From the NCBI GenBank assembly GCA_030141605.1, contig JAQGDQ010001991.1, positions 7,498 to 18,477 on the forward strand: a DNA stretch of 10,980 nucleotides. Reading direction: 5' to 3'. The first letter of the stretch is position 1. The number at the start of each line of letters is the position of its first letter. The translations under genes and the position numbers were made by a program. Origin of the DNA: Tubiluchus corallicola (taxonomy: Eukaryota; Animalia; Priapulida). Below the pieces are notes generated by a model. The model ran no database searches. It was not told the origin of the DNA and saw only the letters and a list, made by a program, of their open reading frames with translations. Of this stretch, positions 1-10,979 are shown one piece after another.

Positions 1-328
1 ATTGTATTGTTTAGGAAACAATTTGATAATATATTTTTTGTTATACAGTTGTGTCATAATGAATGCTTTTTTTAGACTTGGAATTAACAGAAACTTGTAG
101 TATCTTGGGGAGGTGCTGCCATCATTTGGCTGTAAAATTTATTTACCTGTCTCTTAAACTGTTTACTGTACAATCTATTTACATACCATTTACTGGGTTT
201 CAACTAAAGTTAATGAGCTGTAACAGGAGTCCTGGCTATTGTATGTTGGTCAGTAGTAGTTCAGGTCTCATAGTCTGCTGGTGAATAGTGTAATTGGTGA
301 ATTTCATAATGTAGTTTGTCAAGACTGC

Positions 329-342
329 AATTTATGTTGAAA
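329..342 (+). other. Putative self-primer / transcript 5' end in the LTR
   Basis: 14/14 complementary to 467..480; lies ~58 nt upstream of AATAAA in an Inr-like context (GC-AATTT). Confidence 0.55.
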
Positions 343-386
343 CCTACCCCCCTCTACACCAGCTTCACTGCTTCATTTTTTTTGAC

Positions 387-392
387 AATAAA
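387..392 (+). promoter_or_regulatory. AATAAA polyadenylation signal, 5' LTR copy
   Basis: AATAAA ~75 nt before the LTR end, followed by a GT/T-rich tract. Confidence 0.55.
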
Positions 393-466
393 GGAATCAA
401 CCTGTATCAAAGTGTTCATCATTTTTATTTGGTTACAACATGCAGGCAGACAAACTGGACAAAACA

Positions 467-480
467 TTTCAACATAAATT
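467..480 (+). other. Non-tRNA primer-binding site, putative self-priming
   Basis: TTTCAACATAAATT directly follows the LTR-terminal CA, has no TGG, and is the exact reverse complement of AATTTATGTTGAAA at 329..342. Confidence 0.7.
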
Positions 481-501
481 CAGCACTTTCAATAGGAATT
501 A

Positions 502-1326
502 ATGATGTCAGCTTCGGAGAAAAAGACGAGGAGAACTGTTGCAAAGTCAGCTTTGACAAGGGTACTGAGAAGGCTTCAAAATTTAATTGAAGAGGAAGAC
601 AGTGTGCAAGAAATTAATCGGCTGGTGGATGCTGTGGAGGCTGCACTCAATCATTTGGAAGCATGCCACATTGAATTCTTTAATGCATGCAAACAAGAAC
701 AGCAGAATGTGGATGAAGACAAGGCTTCTCAATACATGGAGCAAGAATATTCAAGAGCAGACAACGTTTTTGCATCAGTTAAGGACTACAAGCGGAGAAT
801 CAGGCGAGTTGAAGAACTCAAGAAAGAGAAGGATGATGAAGCTAAAGCAACGAAGGAAGAGGAAAAAATCATCAGGTGGCACAAAATAGATTTTGATACA
901 CTGATTCATTTATTGCATGGACATATTGAAAATCAGGAAAAGAGGCTTGAGAGCGGAGATACAGCAATTCAGGTTCTGGAGAGTTGTCGGTTAGAAATTC
1001 AGACATTGTTGGAAAAAGTGAGGTTATCATTCACCAAATATGCTTCCTTGCTTGCTGACTATCAGGAAGAGGATAGAAGATTCAATGACGTAGAGACAAT
1101 TGTTAAAGAGATAAATGACAAAGCAATGAACTATATTGGTTCTCAATCATTGCAAAACAATCATGCATCTGGCATGTCAAACAACACTGGAAATGAGCAA
1201 GCATCTGGTAGAGCAAAATTGGAAGCAATACCAATTCCCGGTTTTCGTGGTGGCTACAGTGAATGGCCGACGTTCATCACAAATTGGAGGAGGATTGTCG
1301 AAAAACATTATTCCAGTGAATTTTGA
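502..1326 (+). CDS. gag: N-terminal part of element A Gag (charged helical region and start of DUF1759-like domain), ending at an in-frame TGA
   Basis: Ends with the BEL Gag motif LEAIPIPGFRGGYSEWPTFITNW; same frame as 1336..6387 (..SSEF*AAILNEKLSGEA..). Confidence 0.85.
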   Translation: MMSASEKKTRRTVAKSALTRVLRRLQNLIEEEDSVQEINRLVDAVEAALNHLEACHIEFFNACKQEQQNVDEDKASQYMEQEYSRADNVFASVKDYKRRIRRVEELKKEKDDEAKATKEEEKIIRWHKIDFDTLIHLLHGHIENQEKRLESGDTAIQVLESCRLEIQTLLEKVRLSFTKYASLLADYQEEDRRFNDVETIVKEINDKAMNYIGSQSLQNNHASGMSNNTGNEQASGRAKLEAIPIPGFRGGYSEWPTFITNWRRIVEKHYSSEF

Positions 1327-4300
1327 GCTGCCATCTTGAATGAGAAACTAAGTGGAGAGGCGGCGGATCTAGTAGCTGCCTGTAATGACAACTACGCTGA
1401 AATGATTAAACGCCTTGAAAGAAAATATGGAGATAGAAAGAAAGACACTGAAAGCATCATGGCAGAAATCAGAGATGTCAAGCCTTTATCTTCTGGCAAC
1501 CATGTTGGTTTCATAAAGTTTGTCGACAGGATAGAAAAAGCCAGTACAAAACTAAAGTCACTAGGTATGTTGCAGGAAATTAGCAATGTGGGGGCACTAG
1601 CTGAAATTGAACGCAGGTTACCGGAAGATATTCGTAATGAATGGGCAAGGCACATCATCAGCAAGAGTGATGAGGAGAGACTGGAACCTTTCAAGCTTCT
1701 TTTACCATTTTTGTTAATGGAAAAGGAGCGCGTAGAGTATTTAACTGCAGGTGTACGAAAGCAGTTTGGCAGTGTCAGTAGCCATTATCAGGACATTCAA
1801 CCCGAAGCCTTTGGGACTGGTGGCGGTGCTAAGTTAAAAAGCTGTTTCAAATGTGGCAAACAAGGACATTTTGCTCGTGAATGTAAAGCAAACGGGAGGA
1901 TGGGTGACAAAAGACCTTACTTCAAGTGCAGCACATGCGAAGTAAATGACCATTTAAACAGGGATTGTGAGAAGTTCAAAAATATGACTGTTAATCAAAG
2001 ACGAGATGTAATAAAGAGGCATGGTGCTTGTTATATCTGCTTTGGAAATCATGTGGCAGTAGTATGCAAGGGCACAGCAAAGTGCAAGAAGTGTCAGAAT
2101 GGAGGTCACCATACAATGCTCTGCTCCAAAGAGATGCAATCTGGGCCTGGTAGTGTTTCAAAATCAAATGTTGAAGTGGTTGATTCAACAACTATTTCAA
2201 ATTGTGTGGATGCTAAGAAGGTTACATCAGCTACAGTGACGGATAGTGCTGGTACTGATTCAACAACATTACTTCATATAATGGAGATTCAAGGACCAAG
2301 ACGGGGCAGTAAAATCAATGCTTTCTTTGATTCAGGAAGTTCTGGAATGTTTATAACACATGACTGTGCAAAGCAGAATAAGTTCCCTGGAAAAAGTGAG
2401 ATAATTGATGTTAAAACTTTGCAGGGACATGTCGAAACTTTGGAAACTCAGGTGTATAACGTCACGATAGTGGATAAAGATAATCAACGTCATACCTTTT
2501 TGGCATACGGCCTGGATTCAATAACTGGAAGCATTTCTCCAGTTGACATGACAGTGGTGAAGCGTATTTTTCCAGGGATTTCAGTTGGGGACCTTAAGCG
2601 TCCGAGTGGCACAGTGGAGCTTTTACTTGGCAATTTTAAAGCTGGATGGCAACCTCAACCAATCAGATCAGATGGCGCTCATCTTTTCATTATGGAAAAT
2701 ATGTTTGGTAGGTGTTTGGGTGGATCTCATCCAGAGCTATTTGACACTACCAGAAAGGCAAATGGATGCTGGAAAGAAGCTATTTTTCATGCAAAGGTCT
2801 CTAATTTCAGTACTGAAGTTTTAAGTCATCCACAGCTCAATCCACAGGAGTGCCTAGTGATAAAGCAGTCGGGTGATTCTATGTCATCATTTTCAGTTGG
2901 TACAGAAGATAACTGTGACACCTTCTTTGCAGCTGAAGCACTCGGAACTCAGATTGTGCCGAAATGTGGGGCATGTCGGTGTGGTAAGTGCCCTATACCC
3001 GGGCATACCTACAGTTTCCGGGAAGAAAGTGAGCTACGCTTGATCCGTGAAGGACTCAGCTACGATCTAGATCGCCAAGTCTGGATTTCAAAGTATCCTT
3101 GGATAGTGGACAGATCACAGTTGCCTGATAACTATCAACAAGCTCTGTCAGCTTTACAGTCGTGTGAGACAAGTTTGGCAATAAATACAGAATGGGGTGC
3201 TGTGTATTCAGGTCAGATACAAGACATGGTCGATCGAGGTGCTGCACGCAAACTTAGTCAAGCCGAGATTGATAACTGGAAAGGGCCAGTTTTCTATTTA
3301 TGCCACTTGGCTGCGCTTAACCCTAAGAGCCAGTCAACACCCGTGCGAATTGTTTTCAACAGCAGTAGAAAAGCCAAGGGTAACATTTCACTTAATTCAT
3401 GTTTGGCTAAAGGACCAGACAATTACCTTAATAATTTGCTTGGCGTGTTTTGCAGGTTTCGAGAGCACTCTTTTGCTATTCAAGGGGACATTCGGAAGAT
3501 GTACAACTCAGTTGAAATGGATGTCAATGATCAGCACTGTCACAGATTTCTTTGGCGGGATTGTGATGAAAATAGGGCACCAGATGTATACATCATTACT
3601 GTTGTAAATATTGGCGACCGTCCGGCGGGAGCGATTGCCACTGAAGCATTGTATATGACTGCTGAAATGTTCCAAAGCTCACATCCTCAGGCAGCAAAGG
3701 TCATAAAAGAGTCAACATATGTTGATGATATTCTAGAGTCTTGTGAAGGAAGAGAAAGGGGCCTCGGACTAGCAAAGGAGGTGGAAGATATTTTGAAAAG
3801 AGGGAATTTTAAAGTGAAGTGTTGGCGTTTTTCTCGTGAAGCAACTACAGAAGAAAATTCTCCGGTTAAAGTGATTGCAAATTCAGAAGAGGAAGGTCGA
3901 GTGTTGGGAGTTGTGTGGGACTCAGTGGTGGACAAATTCAAATTTCATGCAAAGATCAATTTCTCAAGACGGAGGAGGAAAGTACGAACAGGTACAGACA
4001 TATGTCGCGAGGAGTTAGCCAGAGAAATGCCACCAATTTTGACAAGACGGATGGTCATGAGCCAAGTCATGTCACTGTTTGACCCATGTGGCTTTCTTAC
4101 TCCAGTCACCATGAAGAGTAAGATACTGCTAAGGGAAACTTGGGTTAAGAAACTTGGCTGGGATGATGCATTGCCATTGGATCTGCGGGAGAAGTTTTTT
4201 GAATTTTTTCAAGAACTCTATGATGTTCAGAGTTTATCATTCCCAAGATGCTTGCAGCCAAGAGAAACTGTTGGTGATCCGATGCTGATCATACTTTCAG

Positions 4301-6387
4301 ATGCTAGTGAGACAGGATTTGGTGCTGTCGCCTATGCTCATTGGGAATTAACTGATGGAGGTAGTAAGAGTCAGCTTATAATGGCAAAGGGTAAAATTGC
4401 TCCGCTGAAGCACATCACGATTCCAAGACTTGAACTAAATGGTGCGCTAGTGGGCAAACGAATAAGGAAATTCATTGAAAGTGAAATGCGGTACAATTTC
4501 ACAGAGGTTTTGCATCTCATTGACTCGAAAACAGTTTTGGGGATGCTACAAAAAACAAGCAGTAGATTCGATCGCTATGTGGGAGTGCGTGTTGGAGAAA
4601 TACAATCTGCATCTAAACTTTCAGAAGACGGGAAACTTGATGAGTGGATGTGGATCGATGGATCTCATAATATTGCAGACTGGGTGACACGTGGAAAGAA
4701 GCCATCAGATTTAGCAAGTGATGAATGGGTAAATGGACCACATTTTCTGAGTTTACCAAGGAGTGAATGGCCTGTATCACCTGCTTCAGTCAGTGAGGAT
4801 GAACTATCAGATATCGCAGCAGTTGGACTAGTTTCTGTCAAGGAGAACGAGTCAGTATTTGATGTATCTCGGTTTAGCAAAGTTAATAGGCTACTTCGTT
4901 CAGTCGCAAGAGTGTTGCAAATAGTGAAACCGTGTGGTGATGGGAAACGCCATTTTTCCAGTGGTTCAGTAATGGTAACAGCTGAGATGTTGGAGGCAGC
5001 CAGGAGACGTGTCATCAAAGAAGCTCAGGACACAGTTGAGGAAGAGTTAGAGAAATCGGCACCAGATAAAGATGGTAAACCCACTGGTAGATTTACAAGG
5101 TTAGCACCAACGAAGAACAGTGACGGATTTTGGGTGGTTGGCAGTAGAATGCAGTGTTATGTCATTTTCACGTGGGACAACCAGCTACCTATTATTTTGC
5201 CATATGGACATCCATTGACACGACTTTTCATGGACGAAGCTCATTCTCAAGGGCATCTTGGGGTGGCTGCAACTCTGGAAAAGTTTCGCAGGAAGTACTG
5301 GGTTCCTCGTGGAACGCAATTGGCCAAAAGTGTCAAGCACAGATGTACTACTTGTAGACGTGTTGATGTCAGAGCAGCGAAACAGCTAATGGGCCCTCTT
5401 CCAGAAGAAAAGCTTAAGCCAGCTCCACCTTGGACAAATACAGGAGTTGATTTGTTTGGCCCATTTAGGGTAAGAGGAGAGGTCAATAAGAGATCAGCTG
5501 GGAAAGCATATGGAGTTCTGTTCGTGTGTTTAATAACAAAGGCTGTCCACATAGAACTTGCGAACAGTTACTCCACTGGCAGCTTTCTTTCATGTCTCCG
5601 TCGGTTTGGTGCAATCAGAGGCTGGCCAACAAAGATGTTCAGTGATGGTGGGTCGCAGCTGAGAGCAGCAGGCAAAGAATTGTTGGAAATGCATCTTCAG
5701 CTAGCAGGAAAAGATGTGTCCACATTCAGTGCTTCAAATGGATTTGCTTGGGAGTTTAGCCCTGCACATGCTCCATGGTGGCAGGGGACAACAGAGAAGT
5801 TGATTCATACGGCAAAAAGGGCGATTTCACTGGCAGTAGGATGTGCACTCATGAGCTATTCCGAGTTACAAACTGTCCTTTACGAGGTGATGCAGCTAAT
5901 AAACCAGCGACCTCTTCATGTACATATTTCAGAGGAGAAGCATTTCAAGGCTTTGACACCGAATGATATGTTGCTTGGTCGCAGCTCTGTGAACATACCT
6001 CCAGGTCCGTGGAACTACAAGGCATCGTACAGAGATCGCTTTAGAGTAATTCAGGCAATTGTCGACACGTTTTGGCGCAGGTGGAGCAGAGACTGTGCAC
6101 CAGCCATGGTAGTTCGTCAGAAGTGGCATCATAGAGAGCGGAACATTCAAGTAGGAGATGTTGTGTTTGTTGCTGACACCAATACTCTGCGAGGAGAGTA
6201 TCGCTTGGCAATGGTGGATGAGGTGTTTCCTGGATCAGATGGAAATGTTCGTCATTGCATCGTCAAATACAAAAACATCAAACCAGATGAGGATGCTAGG
6301 AACTATGGTGGTGCGACATATACAAGGGTAAGACGGCCAGTTCAGCGGTTGGTTGTTCTTGTTCCTGCAGATGGTTGGGAGATTTAA
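1327..6387 (+). CDS. pol: Rest of element A Gag-Pol: Gag C-terminus, Zn knuckles, aspartic protease, RT, RNase H, integrase
   Basis: Zn knuckles 1843..2124; protease FFDSGS (D 2329); RT YVDD 3718..3729; RNase H SDAS (D 4300), PRLEL, DSKTVL, NIADW; integrase HHCC (H..GH...CTTC) and D5449/D5644/E5794; DUF5641-like C-terminus. Confidence 0.95.
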   Translation, partial: AAILNEKLSGEAADLVAACNDNYAEMIKRLERKYGDRKKDTESIMAEIRDVKPLSSGNHVGFIKFVDRIEKASTKLKSLGMLQEISNVGALAEIERRLPEDIRNEWARHIISKSDEERLEPFKLLLPFLLMEKERVEYLTAGVRKQFGSVSSHYQDIQPEAFGTGGGAKLKSCFKCGKQGHFARECKANGRMGDKRPYFKCSTCEVNDHLNRDCEKFKNMTVNQRRDVIKRHGACYICFGNHVAVVCKGTAKCKKCQNGGHHTMLCSKEMQSGPGSVSKSNVEVVDSTTISNCVDAKKVTSATVTDSAGTDSTTLLHIMEIQGPRRGSKINAFFDSGSSGMFITHDCAKQNKFPGKSEIIDVKTLQGHVETLETQVYNVTIVDKDNQRHTFLAYGLDSITGSISPVDMTVVKRIFPGISVGDLKRPSGTVELLLGNFKAGWQPQPIRSDGAHLFIMENMFGRCLGGSHPELFDTTRKANGCWKEAIFHAKVSNFSTEVLSHPQLNPQECLVIKQSGDSMSSFSVGTEDNCDTFFAAEALGTQIVPKCGACRCGKCPIPGHTYSFREESELRLIREGLSYDLDRQVWISKYPWIVDRSQLPDNYQQALSALQSCETSLAINTEWGAVYSGQIQDMVDRGAARKLSQAEIDNWKGPVFYLCHLAALNPKSQSTPVRIVFNSSRKAKGNISLNSCLAKGPDNYLNNLLGVFCRFREHSFAIQGDIRKMYNSVEMDVNDQHCHRFLWRDCDENRAPDVYIITVVNIGDRPAGAIATEALYMTAEMFQSSHPQAAKVIKESTYVDDILESCEGRERGLGLAKEVEDILKRGNFKVKCWRFSREATTEENSPVKVIANSEEEGRVLGVVWDSVVDKFKFHAKINFSRRRRKVRTGTDICREELAREMPPILTRRMVMSQVMSLFDPCGFLTPVTMKSKILLRETWVKKLGWDDALPLDLREKFFEFFQELYDVQSLSFPRCLQPRETVGDPMLIILSDASETGFGAVAYAHWELTDGGSKSQLIMAKGKIAPLKHITIPRLELNGALVGKRIRKFIESEMRYNFTEVLHLIDSKTVLGMLQKTSSRFDRYVGVRVGEIQSASKLSEDGKLDEWMWIDGSHNIADWVTRGKKPSDLASDEWVNGPHFLSLPRSEWPVSPASVSEDELSDIAAVGLVSVKENESVFDVSRFSKVNRLLRSVARVLQIVKPCGDGKRHFSSGSVMVTAEMLEAARRRVIKEAQDTVEEELEKSAPDKDGKPTGRFTRLAPTKNSDGFWVVGSRMQCYVIFTWDNQLPIILPYGHPLTRLFMDEAHSQGHLGVAATLEKFRRKYWVPRGTQLAKSVKHRCTTCRRVDVRAAKQLMGPLPEEKLKPAPPWTNTGVDLFGPFRVRGEVNKRSAGKAYGVLFVCLITKAVHIELANSYSTGSFLSCLRRFGAIRGWPTKMFSDGGSQLRAAGKELLEMHLQLAGKDVSTFSASNGFAWEFSPAHAPWWQGTTEKLIHTAKRAISLAVGCALMSYSELQTVLYEVMQLINQRPLHVHISEEKHFKALTPNDMLLGRSSVNIPPGPWNYKASYRDRFRVIQAIVDTFWRRWSRDCAPAMVVRQKWHHRERNIQVGDVVFVADTNTLRGEYRLAMVDEVFPGSDGNVRHCIVKYKNIKPDEDARNYGGATYTRVRRPVQRLVVLVPADGWEI

Positions 6388-6414
6388 AGGAGCACCGCGT
6401 TTTTTTTTCATCTT

Positions 6415-6419
6415 GGGGG
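6415..6419 (+). other. Minimal polypurine tract (GGGGG)
   Basis: G run directly abutting the TG of the 3' LTR, preceded by a T9 tract at 6400..6408. Confidence 0.55.
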
Positions 6420-6882
6420 TGTATTGTTTAGGAAACAATTTGATAATATATTTTTTGTTATACAGTTGTGTCATAATGAATGCTTTTTTTAGACTTGGAA
6501 TTAACAGAAACTTGTAGTATCTTGGGGAGGTGCTGCCATCCTTTGGCTGTAAAATTAATTTACCTGTCTCTTAAACTGTTTACTGTACAATCTATTTACA
6601 TACCATTTACTGGGTTTCAACTAAAGTTAATGAGCTGTAACAGGAGTCCTGGCTATTGTATGTTGGTCAGTAGTAGTTCAGGTCTCATAGTCTGCTGGTG
6701 AATAGTGTAATTGGTGAGTTTCATAATGTAGTTTGTCAAGACTGCAATTTATGTTGAAACCTACCCCCCTCTACACCAGCTTCACTGCTTCATTTTTTTT
6801 ACAATAAAGGAATCAACCTGTATCAAAGTGTTCATCATTTTTATTTGGTTACAACATGCAGGCAGACAAACTGGACAAAACA
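6420..6882 (+). repeat. 3' LTR of element A (463 bp)
   Basis: Copy of 3..466. Differences by eye: A124/C6541, T140/A6557, A301/G6718, and G384 missing (~99% identity). Confidence 0.95.
6803..6808 (+). terminator. AATAAA polyadenylation signal, 3' LTR (probable functional copy)
   Basis: Same motif in the 3' LTR, with downstream GTGTT and TTTTTATTTGGTT. Confidence 0.6.
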
Positions 6883-6887
6883 TTCAT
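6883..6887. repeat. Probable 5-bp target-site duplication TTCAT (right copy)
   Basis: TTCAT follows the 3' LTR; window positions 1-2 (AT) match its last two bases. The rest of the left copy is outside the window. Confidence 0.6.
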
Positions 6888-7430
6888 AGCTATAGTGTAT
6901 CGGTTGTGCAATTCTGGGTTCCTCTGCAGCCGTTTACGTAGACTTTCCAATCTAGATGAAGCCATTTGTAGCGTATCTGGTAAAACATCGTTCTCAGATT
7001 TAAATGGGATGTCCAACTGGTAATGCCCATGTGTTTTTGTGACTGAAGCCTCCCATATATCGAGAGCACGCATATCGTCTCTAGAGAATTGTCTGTCAGA
7101 CTCGCTAGTTTCAATTTTCCAGAATTGTTCTATTTGCTGCTGCAAGGAATTGGTTTCTCCATATGACAATGCATTGGCTTGGGTTAAATTACTACAAATG
7201 CGCCCTAAATTAGGAACGCCGCCTCCTATGGGTCCATTAAGGGTCCAGCCTAGCTTTGTCTTCACAGCATATGGCGTTAGTCTAGGACCTGTTCGTACCT
7301 CAAGAGGAATCAGCGCATCAGGAACATCCTGGCCGATCAAAAGTCCCAGTTCAGTTAGGTCTTCTGTATCTGTGAACGATAGGGGAAGTCCTTGCAAATG
7401 CGGCCATTGTTCTACATCCTTGCTAAAGGC
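6883..7430 (-). pseudogene. pol: In-frame continuation of element B pol (protease C-terminal part to pre-RT region), truncated by the insertion of A
   Basis: After TAG 7433..7431 the same frame reads AFSKDVEQWPHLQGLP...RYTIAM and then runs into the antisense LTR of A. Confidence 0.88.
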
Positions 7431-10421
7431 CTAGCAGTCCTTTTCCAGTAACAATGCAGGCCTAACGAAGACATGAGGCAAAGCTATTTTATTGCCAGTG
7501 TTTACCCCAGTAACAGACATCTTCGTGATTAAAGTGTTTATCTTGGAATATTTCTCTTCTATAGTGGTTAAAGAGAGCGTTCGTTTTTGTCCAGTAGCCC
7601 CAAGTTTGTCGAACAATGCCTTTGTACAAAAAGTGTTAGTCGAGCCAGGGTCAAGTAGGGCTAAAGTACGCACGGGCATCTTCCCATCAACTTCAACCAA
7701 AACTGAGACAACAGGGAGAGCCGCTTTGCCGCCTTCCTTAATACTAGCACAACTGCTAGAAGCTTCTGGTTTACAATGTGTTGGCGCTTTTTCCTTCTTG
7801 CTTCCATCATTGTTTTTAGAAGGTGACATTTTCTCCAAGGCAGCATGCAGTAAATTTGAATGCTTACGTCTGCATCCTTCTACGTCGCATCCTGCTTTGA
7901 AGCATCGAGCAGCCCTGTGCTTTCCTTTAATCAAACAATTGAAGCAAAGACCTTCTCTTCTGGCGGTTTTCAATCTATCAGTATCATTCATTGACTTAAA
8001 TTTATTGCATAGCCTGAGTGAACGGTGTTCCGTAGAGTTACATAGAAAACAAGGCATCTCTAGGCGTTGAGAAGCCATTTTGCCACCACTTCCGGTTGTA
8101 TTTCCGGGTTGTCGTTCACTGTTGCATTTCGTAATTGATGCAGTTTCCTGCGCTGAGCTGGCGAAATTCCTGGCTTTGGTGTCGCGTCTACCTTTTGGGC
8201 TCCTAGTAGACAGGCTAACGTTAATGTCGCCAAAGACCGGATGATTAATTTTGTCAGCTGCGTCCTTAATGAATTCGACTACATCAAATATCGTCGGATT
8301 CCTGTGCTCATATTTCAGAAGCCTGGCTACAACATCCTTCCACCTATCCTGGAACTTGAATGGGAGTTTTTTAATTATTTGTAGCAAACTGCATTGAGTA
8401 CTAATTTCGCAAACGTTGTTCATTATTTTCAAAGTTTCCACACAAGCCACAATCAAATCAGAAAATTCCTGTAACTTTCCCGGCTCATTTATCTTTATGG
8501 GCTCAAATTCAGCAATTCTGGAAAGCCAGGCCTGTGTGACAACAAATGGCGAGCCGAATCTTTCGGTTAAAAGCTGTTTAGCATGCCCATATGCAAAACG
8601 GGGGTCCATATAATTACAACTGTCAACAACTCTTTTAGCTTTACCAATGCAGAGTTGGGCTAACCTAGTGTACCTCGCTGCATCATCTTGGGTATAGTTC
8701 TCCACGCTGGCTTCGAAACGCTTGATAAAGCTCCAGAACTTCATTACGTCACCATCAAACGTTTCAAGCTGCACGTGTGGAAGCTGCATAGCATTGTACA
8801 TATTTAAGTGTTGTCTTTGGCCTTCTAACATGAGGTCCATAAAAACGTTCATGTCATTCTGACTAGCCCTACCGGAGAAATTCCTAGAATTATTTTGTAT
8901 CCCGTTACCACAAGAAGCCTGAGGCGATGTAGCCGGAAGCGGAAGTTGCGTATTCCCTGGGACGAAGTCACGTGCAGAAATATTTAAAGTTTGTTCTACC
9001 TGGGGTGATTTAAATGCGGCATGGAAGAACGGCGTAGTTTGTTTAACGCTAGGTTCTAAACCTTCACTGGAAGAATTTTCGAAGAAGGGCTGTACATCAG
9101 ATAAATAGATATTCCACCATCTACGAAGAAAACCTGATTCATAGTCATCCGAAAAATTGACGTTTACATATTCAGTATAATCCCAGGGCTTCTTTCGGCC
9201 TAAAAAGTGCGCAACTTTAATCTTGCTACTGAACTGCTTCATTGCAGGAAGGTAACCGTAACGACCTTGGACGGCAGCATTATACACAAAAGGTAGGCGC
9301 TTGTCAAACTGTGAACTCCAGTTCGGAAAGGCTAAATTTAATAAACCCTGATCACCGCCATCGAATGAACAGGCCTCAGTTTGTGATAGTGACAACAATC
9401 TACTGTAAGTTTCCAAATTAGGCTGAAATACAAACATTCCAGAATTAAAACAATCAGGCCACCCCACATCTGGGGCAGCCGCAAGCTCATCATAATTGAA
9501 TAACTCATCAATATTATCTAATACTAAAGTATCAGCATCTAAGTAAACGCACTTTGTAAACTGAGTCATAGCCCAGCAGTGCAATTTCGAGAATGTTACA
9601 TTTAGCTCTGGCCTACCTAGCAAATGCAAGTTATCAAAATCACTACTCTTTAATAAATCAATCATTTGTACATAATCAAAAACATTACTAAGCTCTGCCA
9701 TAACTCTGCTAGAAACAGTATGGGTGACCAAAATTGCTAGATGTCGAGTTGTACCAGTTCGACGCAAACTGTGTGCCAAGACAAGAGCTCCCTTAGCATA
9801 ACTGTCGTTCATTGCCATGGTGAGATAGGCCTCCATAGACGTATGATGAACTGCAGGCTTGGTGTCTGATGACTGGGCTTTGGTGACGTCACGCACTCCT
9901 TGAAGCCAATCGGTAACCTTGTCCTTGGTTGACATGGGTTTCCTAGCTAAAGTCTCGTCCTTGATTTCAGGCGAGGTGATGGTTGTACGCGACTTCTGAC
10001 TGGTTGCACTGCTATGTGAAGTAACTTCACTCTCAAGTCTTAACTGTTTTAACTTCATTGCTTTTAATTTCAGCTCCTGTTCCTGAATCTTAATCTCATG
10101 CAACTTTACTTCCCTGGCACTTTTCTTCGACCGTCTCGTAGATTTCAAATGACTAGCACCTGAAGATGCTTTGGAAGGGCTGCGCTCGCCAACTTGATGC
10201 TGCGCTGTCGCTGTAGCTGCGTCAGCATACGACGACGTACCAGACGCTTCACATGACGTTACATTATATGAATGATCTGGTTTCTGCTGACTTGCTAAGA
10301 GTCTGTGAATTAGCTCTTCTTTACTACCAGAAACTGACAGTTGTTTGGCCCGCAGCATTTCTCGCAGCTGATCACGGGTAGTATTTTTTAATTTCTCCCT
10401 TGTTGTTTGGTCCGACATCAT
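7431..10421 (-). CDS. gag: Element B Gag-protease polyprotein, 996 aa to an in-frame TAG: SAP, charged helical region, glycogenin, PAM2-like, DUF1759 Gag, Zn knuckles, protease
   Basis: One uninterrupted ORF. Knuckles CFLC..H..C, CFNC..H..C, C..C..KHSNLLH; protease motif LDPGS. Confidence 0.92.
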   Translation of the reverse strand: MMSDQTTREKLKNTTRDQLREMLRAKQLSVSGSKEELIHRLLASQQKPDHSYNVTSCEASGTSSYADAATATAQHQVGERSPSKASSGASHLKSTRRSKKSAREVKLHEIKIQEQELKLKAMKLKQLRLESEVTSHSSATSQKSRTTITSPEIKDETLARKPMSTKDKVTDWLQGVRDVTKAQSSDTKPAVHHTSMEAYLTMAMNDSYAKGALVLAHSLRRTGTTRHLAILVTHTVSSRVMAELSNVFDYVQMIDLLKSSDFDNLHLLGRPELNVTFSKLHCWAMTQFTKCVYLDADTLVLDNIDELFNYDELAAAPDVGWPDCFNSGMFVFQPNLETYSRLLSLSQTEACSFDGGDQGLLNLAFPNWSSQFDKRLPFVYNAAVQGRYGYLPAMKQFSSKIKVAHFLGRKKPWDYTEYVNVNFSDDYESGFLRRWWNIYLSDVQPFFENSSSEGLEPSVKQTTPFFHAAFKSPQVEQTLNISARDFVPGNTQLPLPATSPQASCGNGIQNNSRNFSGRASQNDMNVFMDLMLEGQRQHLNMYNAMQLPHVQLETFDGDVMKFWSFIKRFEASVENYTQDDAARYTRLAQLCIGKAKRVVDSCNYMDPRFAYGHAKQLLTERFGSPFVVTQAWLSRIAEFEPIKINEPGKLQEFSDLIVACVETLKIMNNVCEISTQCSLLQIIKKLPFKFQDRWKDVVARLLKYEHRNPTIFDVVEFIKDAADKINHPVFGDINVSLSTRSPKGRRDTKARNFASSAQETASITKCNSERQPGNTTGSGGKMASQRLEMPCFLCNSTEHRSLRLCNKFKSMNDTDRLKTARREGLCFNCLIKGKHRAARCFKAGCDVEGCRRKHSNLLHAALEKMSPSKNNDGSKKEKAPTHCKPEASSSCASIKEGGKAALPVVSVLVEVDGKMPVRTLALLDPGSTNTFCTKALFDKLGATGQKRTLSLTTIEEKYSKINTLITKMSVTGVNTGNKIALPHVFVRPALLLEKDC
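9081..9836 (-). CDS. GYG: Glycogenin catalytic domain (glycosyltransferase family 8) inside Gag, aa ~196-447
   Basis: NDSYAKGALVL, RPELNVTFSKLHCW, YLDADTLVLDNIDELF (DxD 9539..9531), AAPDVGWPDCFNSG, SFDGGDQGLLN, LPFVYN, YGYLPA (Tyr 9260..9258), HFLGRKKPW, WWNIY; colinear with animal glycogenin-1 as I recall it. Confidence 0.95.
10290..10391 (-). other. SAP DNA/RNA-binding motif at the N-terminus of B Gag
   Basis: LKNTTRDQLREMLRAKQLSVSGSKEELIHRL fits the SAP pattern L..L...L+..L...gL..sG.K..Li.RL. Confidence 0.8.
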
Positions 10422-10532: not shown

Positions 10533-10979
10533 TGTTGACTGTATAAAAATGTCCACTCTGGATTGTCGAATGCCGATATAAAATTGCTTGGGCTTTACGG
10601 AGACAAACAAACAAAGTCATCATTCGCTCAGTGTAACTGTTTATTGTTTGTACTATTTTCATGGCACATGCCCCGTAGTCATATTTGCTTCATCCCAAAA
10701 TATTACATTTTATCTGAAATAATATATAAATTTCTTTAATAAACTGATTCATTTTTACCAAAACATCGAATATGATTAAATTAATGAGAAGCTTACAACA
10801 AAATAAAATAAATGACTAAATAAAATTTACGTACATCGTTGGCATTAATCATGAGTTCACACAGCTACGTCACCACATGTACACCTTGAAACCTAAATGA
10901 CCGGAAACTCTGTAGGAAGCGACTATTGAGGCCAGGTGTCGCCACTTGTAACTTATAGCTATACTAAATTTGACAAACA
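10533..10979 (-). repeat. Probable 5' LTR of element B (boundaries uncertain)
   Basis: Non-coding region upstream of gag. Minus strand starts TGTTTG at 10979, TATATA at ~10728, AATAAA at 10645..10640, candidate end AACA at 10533 (alternative 10429). No second LTR in the window to confirm. Confidence 0.35.

Follow-up and report, generated by a model that had tools for sequence, protein, structure and literature searches.

The stretch of DNA analysed here (the window) comprises 10,980 nucleotides of contig JAQGDQ010001991.1 from the priapulid Tubiluchus corallicola. It contains two nested long terminal repeat (LTR) retrotransposons of the BEL/Pao group, the outer of which lies on the minus strand and carries a glycogenin domain within its Gag protein. 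The Gag-protease frame of this outer element extends from 10421 to 7431 on the minus strand (996 codons and a stop, stop-free inside), and the intronless catalytic (GT8) domain of glycogenin occupies its residues 196–447 (9081–9836, minus strand), as delimited by Pfam, phmmer, alignment and an AlphaFold model. A preliminary description of this DNA had placed a glycogenin of about 250 residues, free of stops, in frame within a BEL/Pao Gag and upstream of DUF1759, and the open frame and the profile and sequence searches confirm that arrangement. The Pfam search that it had advised recovers Glyco_transf_8 at E 4.5e-18 with DUF1759 downstream, while phmmer against the PDB finds human glycogenin-1 at E 1.4e-84 across 250 of the 252 domain residues. 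The AlphaFold model of the domain (pLDDT 87.5) overlays glycogenin-1 (GYG1) at TM 0.92.

With residues numbered according to P0382, a mammalian GYG1 of 333 residues, all twelve active-site residues that had been listed as retained are identical in the alignment: Y15 (Y208 in the Gag frame), T83 (T276), K86 (K279), D102 and D104 (D295 and D297), N133 (N326), D160 and D163 (D354 and D357), Q164 (Q358), Y195 (Y388), H212 (H405) and K218 (K411). They include the DxD motif D295-A296-D297 (9531–9539, minus strand), which by alignment to GYG1 binds the metal and UDP-glucose, and the tyrosine Y388 (9258–9260, minus strand), aligned with the glucose acceptor Y195 of GYG1 (PMC9188544) at a position that is tyrosine in about 100% of 314 glycogenins. 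The glycogenin dimer contacts W128, D160 and Y197 (PMC12267440) are likewise conserved in the alignment, as W321, D354 and Y390; a homodimer prediction scored 0.68 for the domain and 0.50 for a control, figures that give no verdict. The captured domain thus has the GT-A fold with its DxD, His and Asp/Gln motifs, and it is far closer to glycogenin-1 than to the Skp1 galactosyltransferase (PDB 6mw5, E 8e-31).

The domain opens with a methionine two residues ahead of the first strand, a spacing with which 3 of the 93 scored free glycogenins also begin and which fits a capture from the start codon. At its other end, no counterpart of the C-terminal motif by which glycogenin binds glycogen synthase (GN34; PMC9188544) is found in any of the window's six frames (best E 0.43), as judged with a profile built from 262 host segments that matches 106 of the 117 free glycogenins tested. 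From its sequence, the captured domain likely works like the catalytic core of glycogenin, yet it is not a full glycogenin, the synthase-binding feature having been looked for and found missing.

The outer element and the element nested within it

Three zinc knuckles followed by an aspartic protease in one frame are a defining feature of BEL/Pao elements. The outer element has both in one frame together with a DUF1759 Gag, as seen by Pfam and in an alignment with ten Gag relatives. All of the following features of this element lie on the minus strand. The capsid-type DUF1759 domain covers residues 555–696 (8334–8759; PF03564, E 5.1e-6, 27 bits against a cut-off of 25.4); its structural model has a pLDDT of 84.7, and its top structural matches are weak (PNMA2 capsid, E 6e-3; dArc1 capsid, E 0.075). 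Downstream, three Cys/His zinc-knuckle motifs were read from the sequence at residues 791–859 (7845–8051), with Cys/His columns conserved in the same alignment, and the protease motif DPGS at residues 924–927 (7641–7652) aligns with the D[PSN]GS of relatives. In that alignment glycogenin is seen to be inserted into the variable region that precedes the capsid domain; this region differs so widely among Gag relatives that DUF1759 starts anywhere from residue 74 to residue 485.

Two further motifs lie on either side of the insertion. Near the N-terminus, residues 15–42 (10296–10379) form a SAP-like motif (PF02037, E 5e-4) whose 20 bits fall under the cut-off of 23.9; P0245, a glycogenin-free Gag relative, has a clear SAP in the same position. 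On the Gag side of the domain, the motif LNISARDFV (8961–8987) precedes the capsid domain, as it also does in glycogenin-free relatives, a similar motif being present in 5 of 17 Gag relatives. We take this LN(P/I)xAxx(F/W) pattern to be a candidate resemblance to PAM2, a ligand of poly(A)-binding protein.

The 5′ LTR of the outer element is a 404-bp LTR-like stretch at 10550–10953, with approximate ends and a first base that deviates from the usual TG; its 3′ partner lies beyond the window. It was recognised from contigs of two public read runs (X1 and X4, below) that have loose ends behind 10953, and from a several-fold rise in summed contig depth from about 10531 upwards. At the other end of the frame, an in-frame stop at 7431–7433 separates the protease from the remaining pol, which continues for 182 residues ahead of the reverse transcriptase, as far as the insertion point (6885–7430). 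This piece matches each of the eight BEL/Pao polyproteins with which it was compared, at E 3e-28 or better and with 37–46% identity, and these bear Peptidase_A17; the reverse transcriptase, RNase H and integrase of the outer element would lie past the nested element. The outer copy in the window is therefore doubly disrupted, by the stop at 7431–7433, which breaks this copy, and by the second BEL/Pao element, which cuts pol at 6882.

That second element is younger, glycogenin-free and on the plus strand, and was delimited within outer pol at 3–6882 by its LTRs and Pfam domains. Its LTRs (3–466 and 6420–6882) are identical at 462 of 465 letters, or about 99% alike, and its gag-pol matches DUF1759, Peptidase_A17, RVT_1, Integrase_H2C2 and DUF5641. 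The frame is open for about 1960 codons except for a single in-frame stop in gag (1324–1326). Straight after its 5′ LTR, 14 letters (467–480) are the exact reverse complement of letters 329–342 of its own LTR, which resembles a self-priming signal; in the outer element the longest comparable match is 6 letters. The flanks of the inner element (1–2 and 6883–6887) fit a 5-bp target-site duplication, although just two letters of the left flank fall within the window. No tRNA was found in the window.

Copies of the fusion in public reads

Four of the six public runs listed, from two studies, contain 53–67% of the sampled words. Contigs were compared with the window for runs X1 and X2 (one sample), X4 (the other study) and X6, giving 24 listed pieces and 1087 more. 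X1, X2 and X4 each cover 30 of 30 bins of the window. No RNA run appeared among those listed as containing the sequence, and no contig of X6, presumably an RNA run, matched the window; neither result is evidence on expression.

The preliminary description had allowed that the fusion might be a misassembly, and this was not borne out: taken together, contigs from the two studies bridge both junctions of the domain. Among the listed pieces, the C-side junction is bridged by X2 record 14 (8566–9170) and the N-side junction by X1 record 7 (9667–9979) and X4 record 23 (9625–9868, with 32 letters on the Gag side), and neither of the two listed joints, both in the inner LTR, skips the glycogenin domain. 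Contigs of X1 and X2 continue beyond 6881 without the nested element, and contigs of X1, X2 and X4 all differ from the window within the stop codon at 7431–7433, so that this stop looks private to the window copy. Other copies hence exist, and the copy in the window is a decaying one. Thus the further copies that the preliminary description had proposed to seek are present, some of them without the nested element; the fusion is real, in frame and present in more than one copy. The listed contigs of the main class are about 0–2.5% different from the window. X1 and X2 also contain, at 7746–8108, a diverged relative that is about 88% similar to the outer element and shows gaps; X4 has one like it (7811–8111).

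The fusion might instead be an artefact of assembly, or the result of one processed pseudogene inserting into a single dead element, and such an origin would account for the broken state of the window copy and its position in nested repeats, where no listed piece spans the whole stretch. We consider it very improbable. The bridging contigs, obtained in two studies, depart from the window at about 1% of sites and include copies lacking the nested element. X1 and X2, two runs of one sample, disagree at two silent sites of the domain, and the sequence beside the domain has no polyA run, no stop of the kind left by an untranslated region and no target-site duplication.

A capsid-displayed glycogenin and its alternatives

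We propose, with confidence a little short of even, that the whole glycogenin catalytic domain within Gag still self-glucosylates and would sit outside the assembling particle. Its capture is most readily accounted for by template switching, in which reverse transcriptase would have jumped to a spliced glycogenin mRNA and returned after copying the coding sequence between the start codon and the linker; mRNA capture by this route is documented (PMC5131818). After capture, the element family would have retained the domain under selection. In a Belpaoviridae capsid, the N-terminus of the capsid protein lies on the outer surface and tolerates a fused folded domain, a nanobody (10.64898/2026.03.22.711591), and because this terminus faces outward, the glycogenin would be expected outside the shell. 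There, at high local density, it could pair with neighbouring domains or with host glycogenin; with one domain per Gag, crowding in the lattice would favour glycogenin dimers and the synthesis of short glucose chains on Tyr388. Self-glucosylation by glycogenin alone has a chain-length limit. Without the synthase-binding tail, the domain alone could not recruit glycogen synthase, and the chains would stay short unless host glycogenin brings the synthase. The likely gain, at a guess, would be pairing with host glycogenin that tethers or coats particles at glycogen granules, and when particles mature the element protease may release the domain, much as it would release a matrix-like region.

Whether the domain has been under selection bears directly on this proposal. 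It is a divergent glycogenin, with a mean identity of 53% to 130 glycogenins whose mutual median is 61%, and no glycogenin found exceeds about 58% identity to it. In a quick tree of 78 of 315 rows its branch measures 1.28 against a median of 0.25. The phylogeny suggested in the preliminary description nests it within the animal glycogenins, next to sequences of krill and crab and two further ones (SH-aLRT 85), a placement that is unsure given the long branch and the quick tree. We claim no donor lineage from it, and the domain does not have the shorter loop of the krill and crab group. The domain departs from the consensus at 12 of the 91 columns that are conserved at 90% or more in 314 sequences, and an equal or greater number of departures is seen in 11 of those 314 glycogenins, 10 of which are named fungal proteins. 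This 13% departure equals the overall excess divergence of the domain, so that the number of departures, taken by itself, is compatible with neutral decay. Such decay is rejected by their nature: the replacements are conservative (BLOSUM sum +13, where random single-base changes would give about −8.5; p about 1e-4) and are concentrated in aliphatic and small columns (10 of 43, versus 2 of the 48 others, p 0.011), so that the long branch was under purifying selection. Two simpler arguments for function were rejected. The open frame is not one, since Gag-Pol downstream in the same frame needs openness anyway, nor is the retention of all twelve active-site residues alone, which at a change rate of 12/91 has a chance of about 0.18 by hand calculation. 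Third-position GC (0.37 in the domain, 0.38–0.43 in Gag) does not date the capture.

Among copies, 40 of 335 rows of differences were listed, of which 26 fall at sense codons of the frame and were kept; of the others, 13 lie outside it and one lies in the stop codon. Over the whole frame, 14 of the 26 listed differences are silent (p 0.001–0.008). Of the three replacements within the domain, two are swaps between residues that are both used by host glycogenins, and the third is a window-only departure from a residue conserved at 98%. Because the listed rows favour changes private to the window copy, this test is weak.

Several observations weigh against a self-glucosylating domain retained for its function, and the first group concerns selection and copies. 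Silent changes make up 4 of the 7 differences listed for the domain, which is not significant (p 0.06–0.12); a silent excess is significant over the whole frame but not inside the domain. Other free glycogenins with branches of 1.06–2.22 exist, and the selection seen on the long, constrained branch may predate the capture, having acted in a fast-evolving host gene. Of the earlier claim that the domain has been kept by selection, the purifying pattern of substitution therefore stands, while selection after capture is not established. In X4, the glycogenin bins (9154–9765) have depths of 104–172, about 3–5 times those of most Gag bins (25–61, with one at 95), and a contig at 9199–9543 with a depth of 127, about 4 times that of the Gag contigs, is 4.4% divergent and two letters short. 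This deeper class of glycogenin copies is probably frameshifted and seems to have spread in X4; Gag contigs of X4 also show gaps. Summed contig depth is not equivalent to copy number, and that main-class contigs have about 3–7 times the depth of a diverged contig from the run to which they belong is a hint only. In addition, X1 and X2 may be the very source of the window, and the C-side bridge was found only there among the pieces listed.

Several of these observations fit a tolerated passenger, taken by a young family as a glycogenin mRNA from a fast-evolving host and surviving because it is in frame, folds by itself and sits in a permissive linker, with its constraint laid down in the host gene. 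The tolerance of the capsid for N-terminal fusions fits such a passenger equally well, as do the low divergence of the main-class contigs, the variability of the region ahead of DUF1759 and the lack of the fusion in any other organism among the matches listed; young LTR-mediated retrocopies, moreover, are often in frame merely through youth (PMC5131818). We regard this explanation as the main rival, though as less likely than not. The rarity among free glycogenins of so many departures at conserved columns, found nearly exclusively in fungal proteins, agrees with selection that was relaxed in new surroundings but went on, the three length changes of the domain are small and keep the frame, with none that is damaging, and the capture spans the folded unit from its methionine with the tail dropped. 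The 4.4%-divergent class also suggests that the domain was captured before the newest copies arose. Even as a passenger, the domain would be a clean case of an entire 250-residue enzyme tolerated in frame within a Gag that kept copying.

The second group of adverse observations concerns the reaction itself. The C loop of the domain is shortened (21 residues, compared with 26 in 175 of 307 glycogenins) and proline-free, and the C loop has been blamed for the low self-glucosylation of human GYG2, which retains the acceptor tyrosine and self-glucosylates little or not at all (PMC12267440). Mimivirus R707 likewise retains an acceptor tyrosine without self-glucosylation (PMC9614988). The domain might therefore have been selected for something other than self-glucosylation: as a module that dimerises or binds host glycogenin, as a decoy that damps glycogen priming in the manner of GYG2, or as a transferase for another acceptor, in the manner of R707 or Gat1. 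The loss of the synthase-binding tail is also in keeping with such a role, for which GYG2, R707 and the Skp1 galactosyltransferase are precedents. We judge it improbable, because the domain keeps every donor-binding residue as well as its acceptor tyrosine and is much nearer to glycogenin-1 than to 6mw5. A proline at the register of GYG1 residue 238, moreover, is present in just 15 of 307 free glycogenins, so that its absence is the norm.

A more far-reaching form of the self-glucosylation proposal is that an autonomous family has turned the glycogen primer into a capsid-displayed enzyme, with particles that self-glucosylate and, by way of host glycogenin and glycogen synthase, become coated with glycogen or lodged in its granules, which would shield them or bring them into glycogen-loaded germ cells. 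We think this unlikely as a whole, though worth stating. If the enzyme is active, it would link a retroelement particle directly to glycogen and offer a new view of how envelope-less elements are routed or shielded; if the particles do self-glucosylate, a retroelement would be making its own glycan coat. The fusion itself is real and unusual; its enzymatic function, like the glycogen targeting and the dimer-aided assembly raised in the preliminary description, is a prediction.

Relation to known systems

The preliminary description knew of no retrotransposon carrying glycogenin, and none was found among the protein matches listed or in the titles and abstract starts of the literature, a search whose scope lies outside Repbase, Dfam, GyDB, most subscription journals and supplements. 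When the whole frame was compared with 1.84 billion representative sequences, the best 150 of 13,247 matches each covered the glycogenin part or the Gag part and none covered both. A fused relative would be expected to outrank such single-part matches, and Pfam found no protein with both parts in 27 of the 150. Searches with the domain returned a Gag or Pol family in none of the best 120 of 1248 matches of 547–1742 residues, in none of all 22 longer matches and in none of the best 120 of 1813 shorter ones. The exact frame sequence had no match in the protein collection, and residues 1–730 gave no usable match in the ESM Atlas. Because masking often removes transposon proteins ahead of gene calling, absence from protein searches is weak evidence. 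The main text of a survey of BEL/Pao elements contains no word starting with "glyco" (PMC3118150), and the main text of PMC13389597, apart from its supplements, does not contain "glycogenin". A glycogenin fused to LIM domains was also seen, in P0003 (GT8 and four LIM matches by Pfam) and likewise in P0011 by precomputed domains.

The outer element matches the BEL/Pao group (Belpaoviridae) in its LTR, DUF1759 Gag, three zinc knuckles and protease followed by pol. Its nearest Gag relatives, among the best 150 of 13,247 matches, are P0144 and P0275 (ENA), XP_064647481 (Lineus), XP_038049665 (Patiria) and XP_041453145 (Lytechinus), which are 34–41% identical over the Gag core, but a GT8 domain was present in none of the 15 Gag matches scanned. 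The domain, for its part, shares with animal glycogenin-1 (GYG1; PDB 3t7m, 3u2w) the fold, the DxD motif, the named catalytic residues, the acceptor tyrosine and the dimer contacts, and differs from it in lacking GN34, in its shorter C loop, in its low identity to any homologue and in lying inside a capsid polyprotein.

Mimivirus R707 is a virus-carried, glycogenin-like GT8 protein and is thought to glucosylate a viral protein, but it is a free gene of a giant DNA virus and is 26% identical to GYG1 (PMC9614988). The continuous 756-nt glycogenin frame, with Gag sequence on both sides, agrees with the LTR-mediated retrocopies of Tan et al. (2016), in which an intronless host sequence lies within an LTR element, most simply as a result of template switching. 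In those retrocopies the capture replaces part of the frames of the element, which becomes non-autonomous, whereas here Gag, protease and pol follow in frame (PMC5131818).

A parallel in organisation is provided by the Burro and GYPSM1 elements of planarians, in which host-type domains (MATH, BIR, BCL2, SUMO-like and dUTPase) lie in frame in the polyprotein of an LTR element. These are gypsy rather than BEL/Pao elements, their extra domains come after Gag, and no glycosyltransferase is named in the account of them (PMC6431247). The extra LTR-element genes named in that section of the review (dUTPase, env, BIR, BCL2 and MATH) serve replication, entry, or the control of cell death and ubiquitin, and the protein and literature searches described above found no self-glycosylating metabolic enzyme within a Gag. 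Host domains in LTR-element polyproteins are thus already known from elements such as Burro, as that review describes; within the scope of the searches above, what appears to be new is a glycogenin inside Gag.

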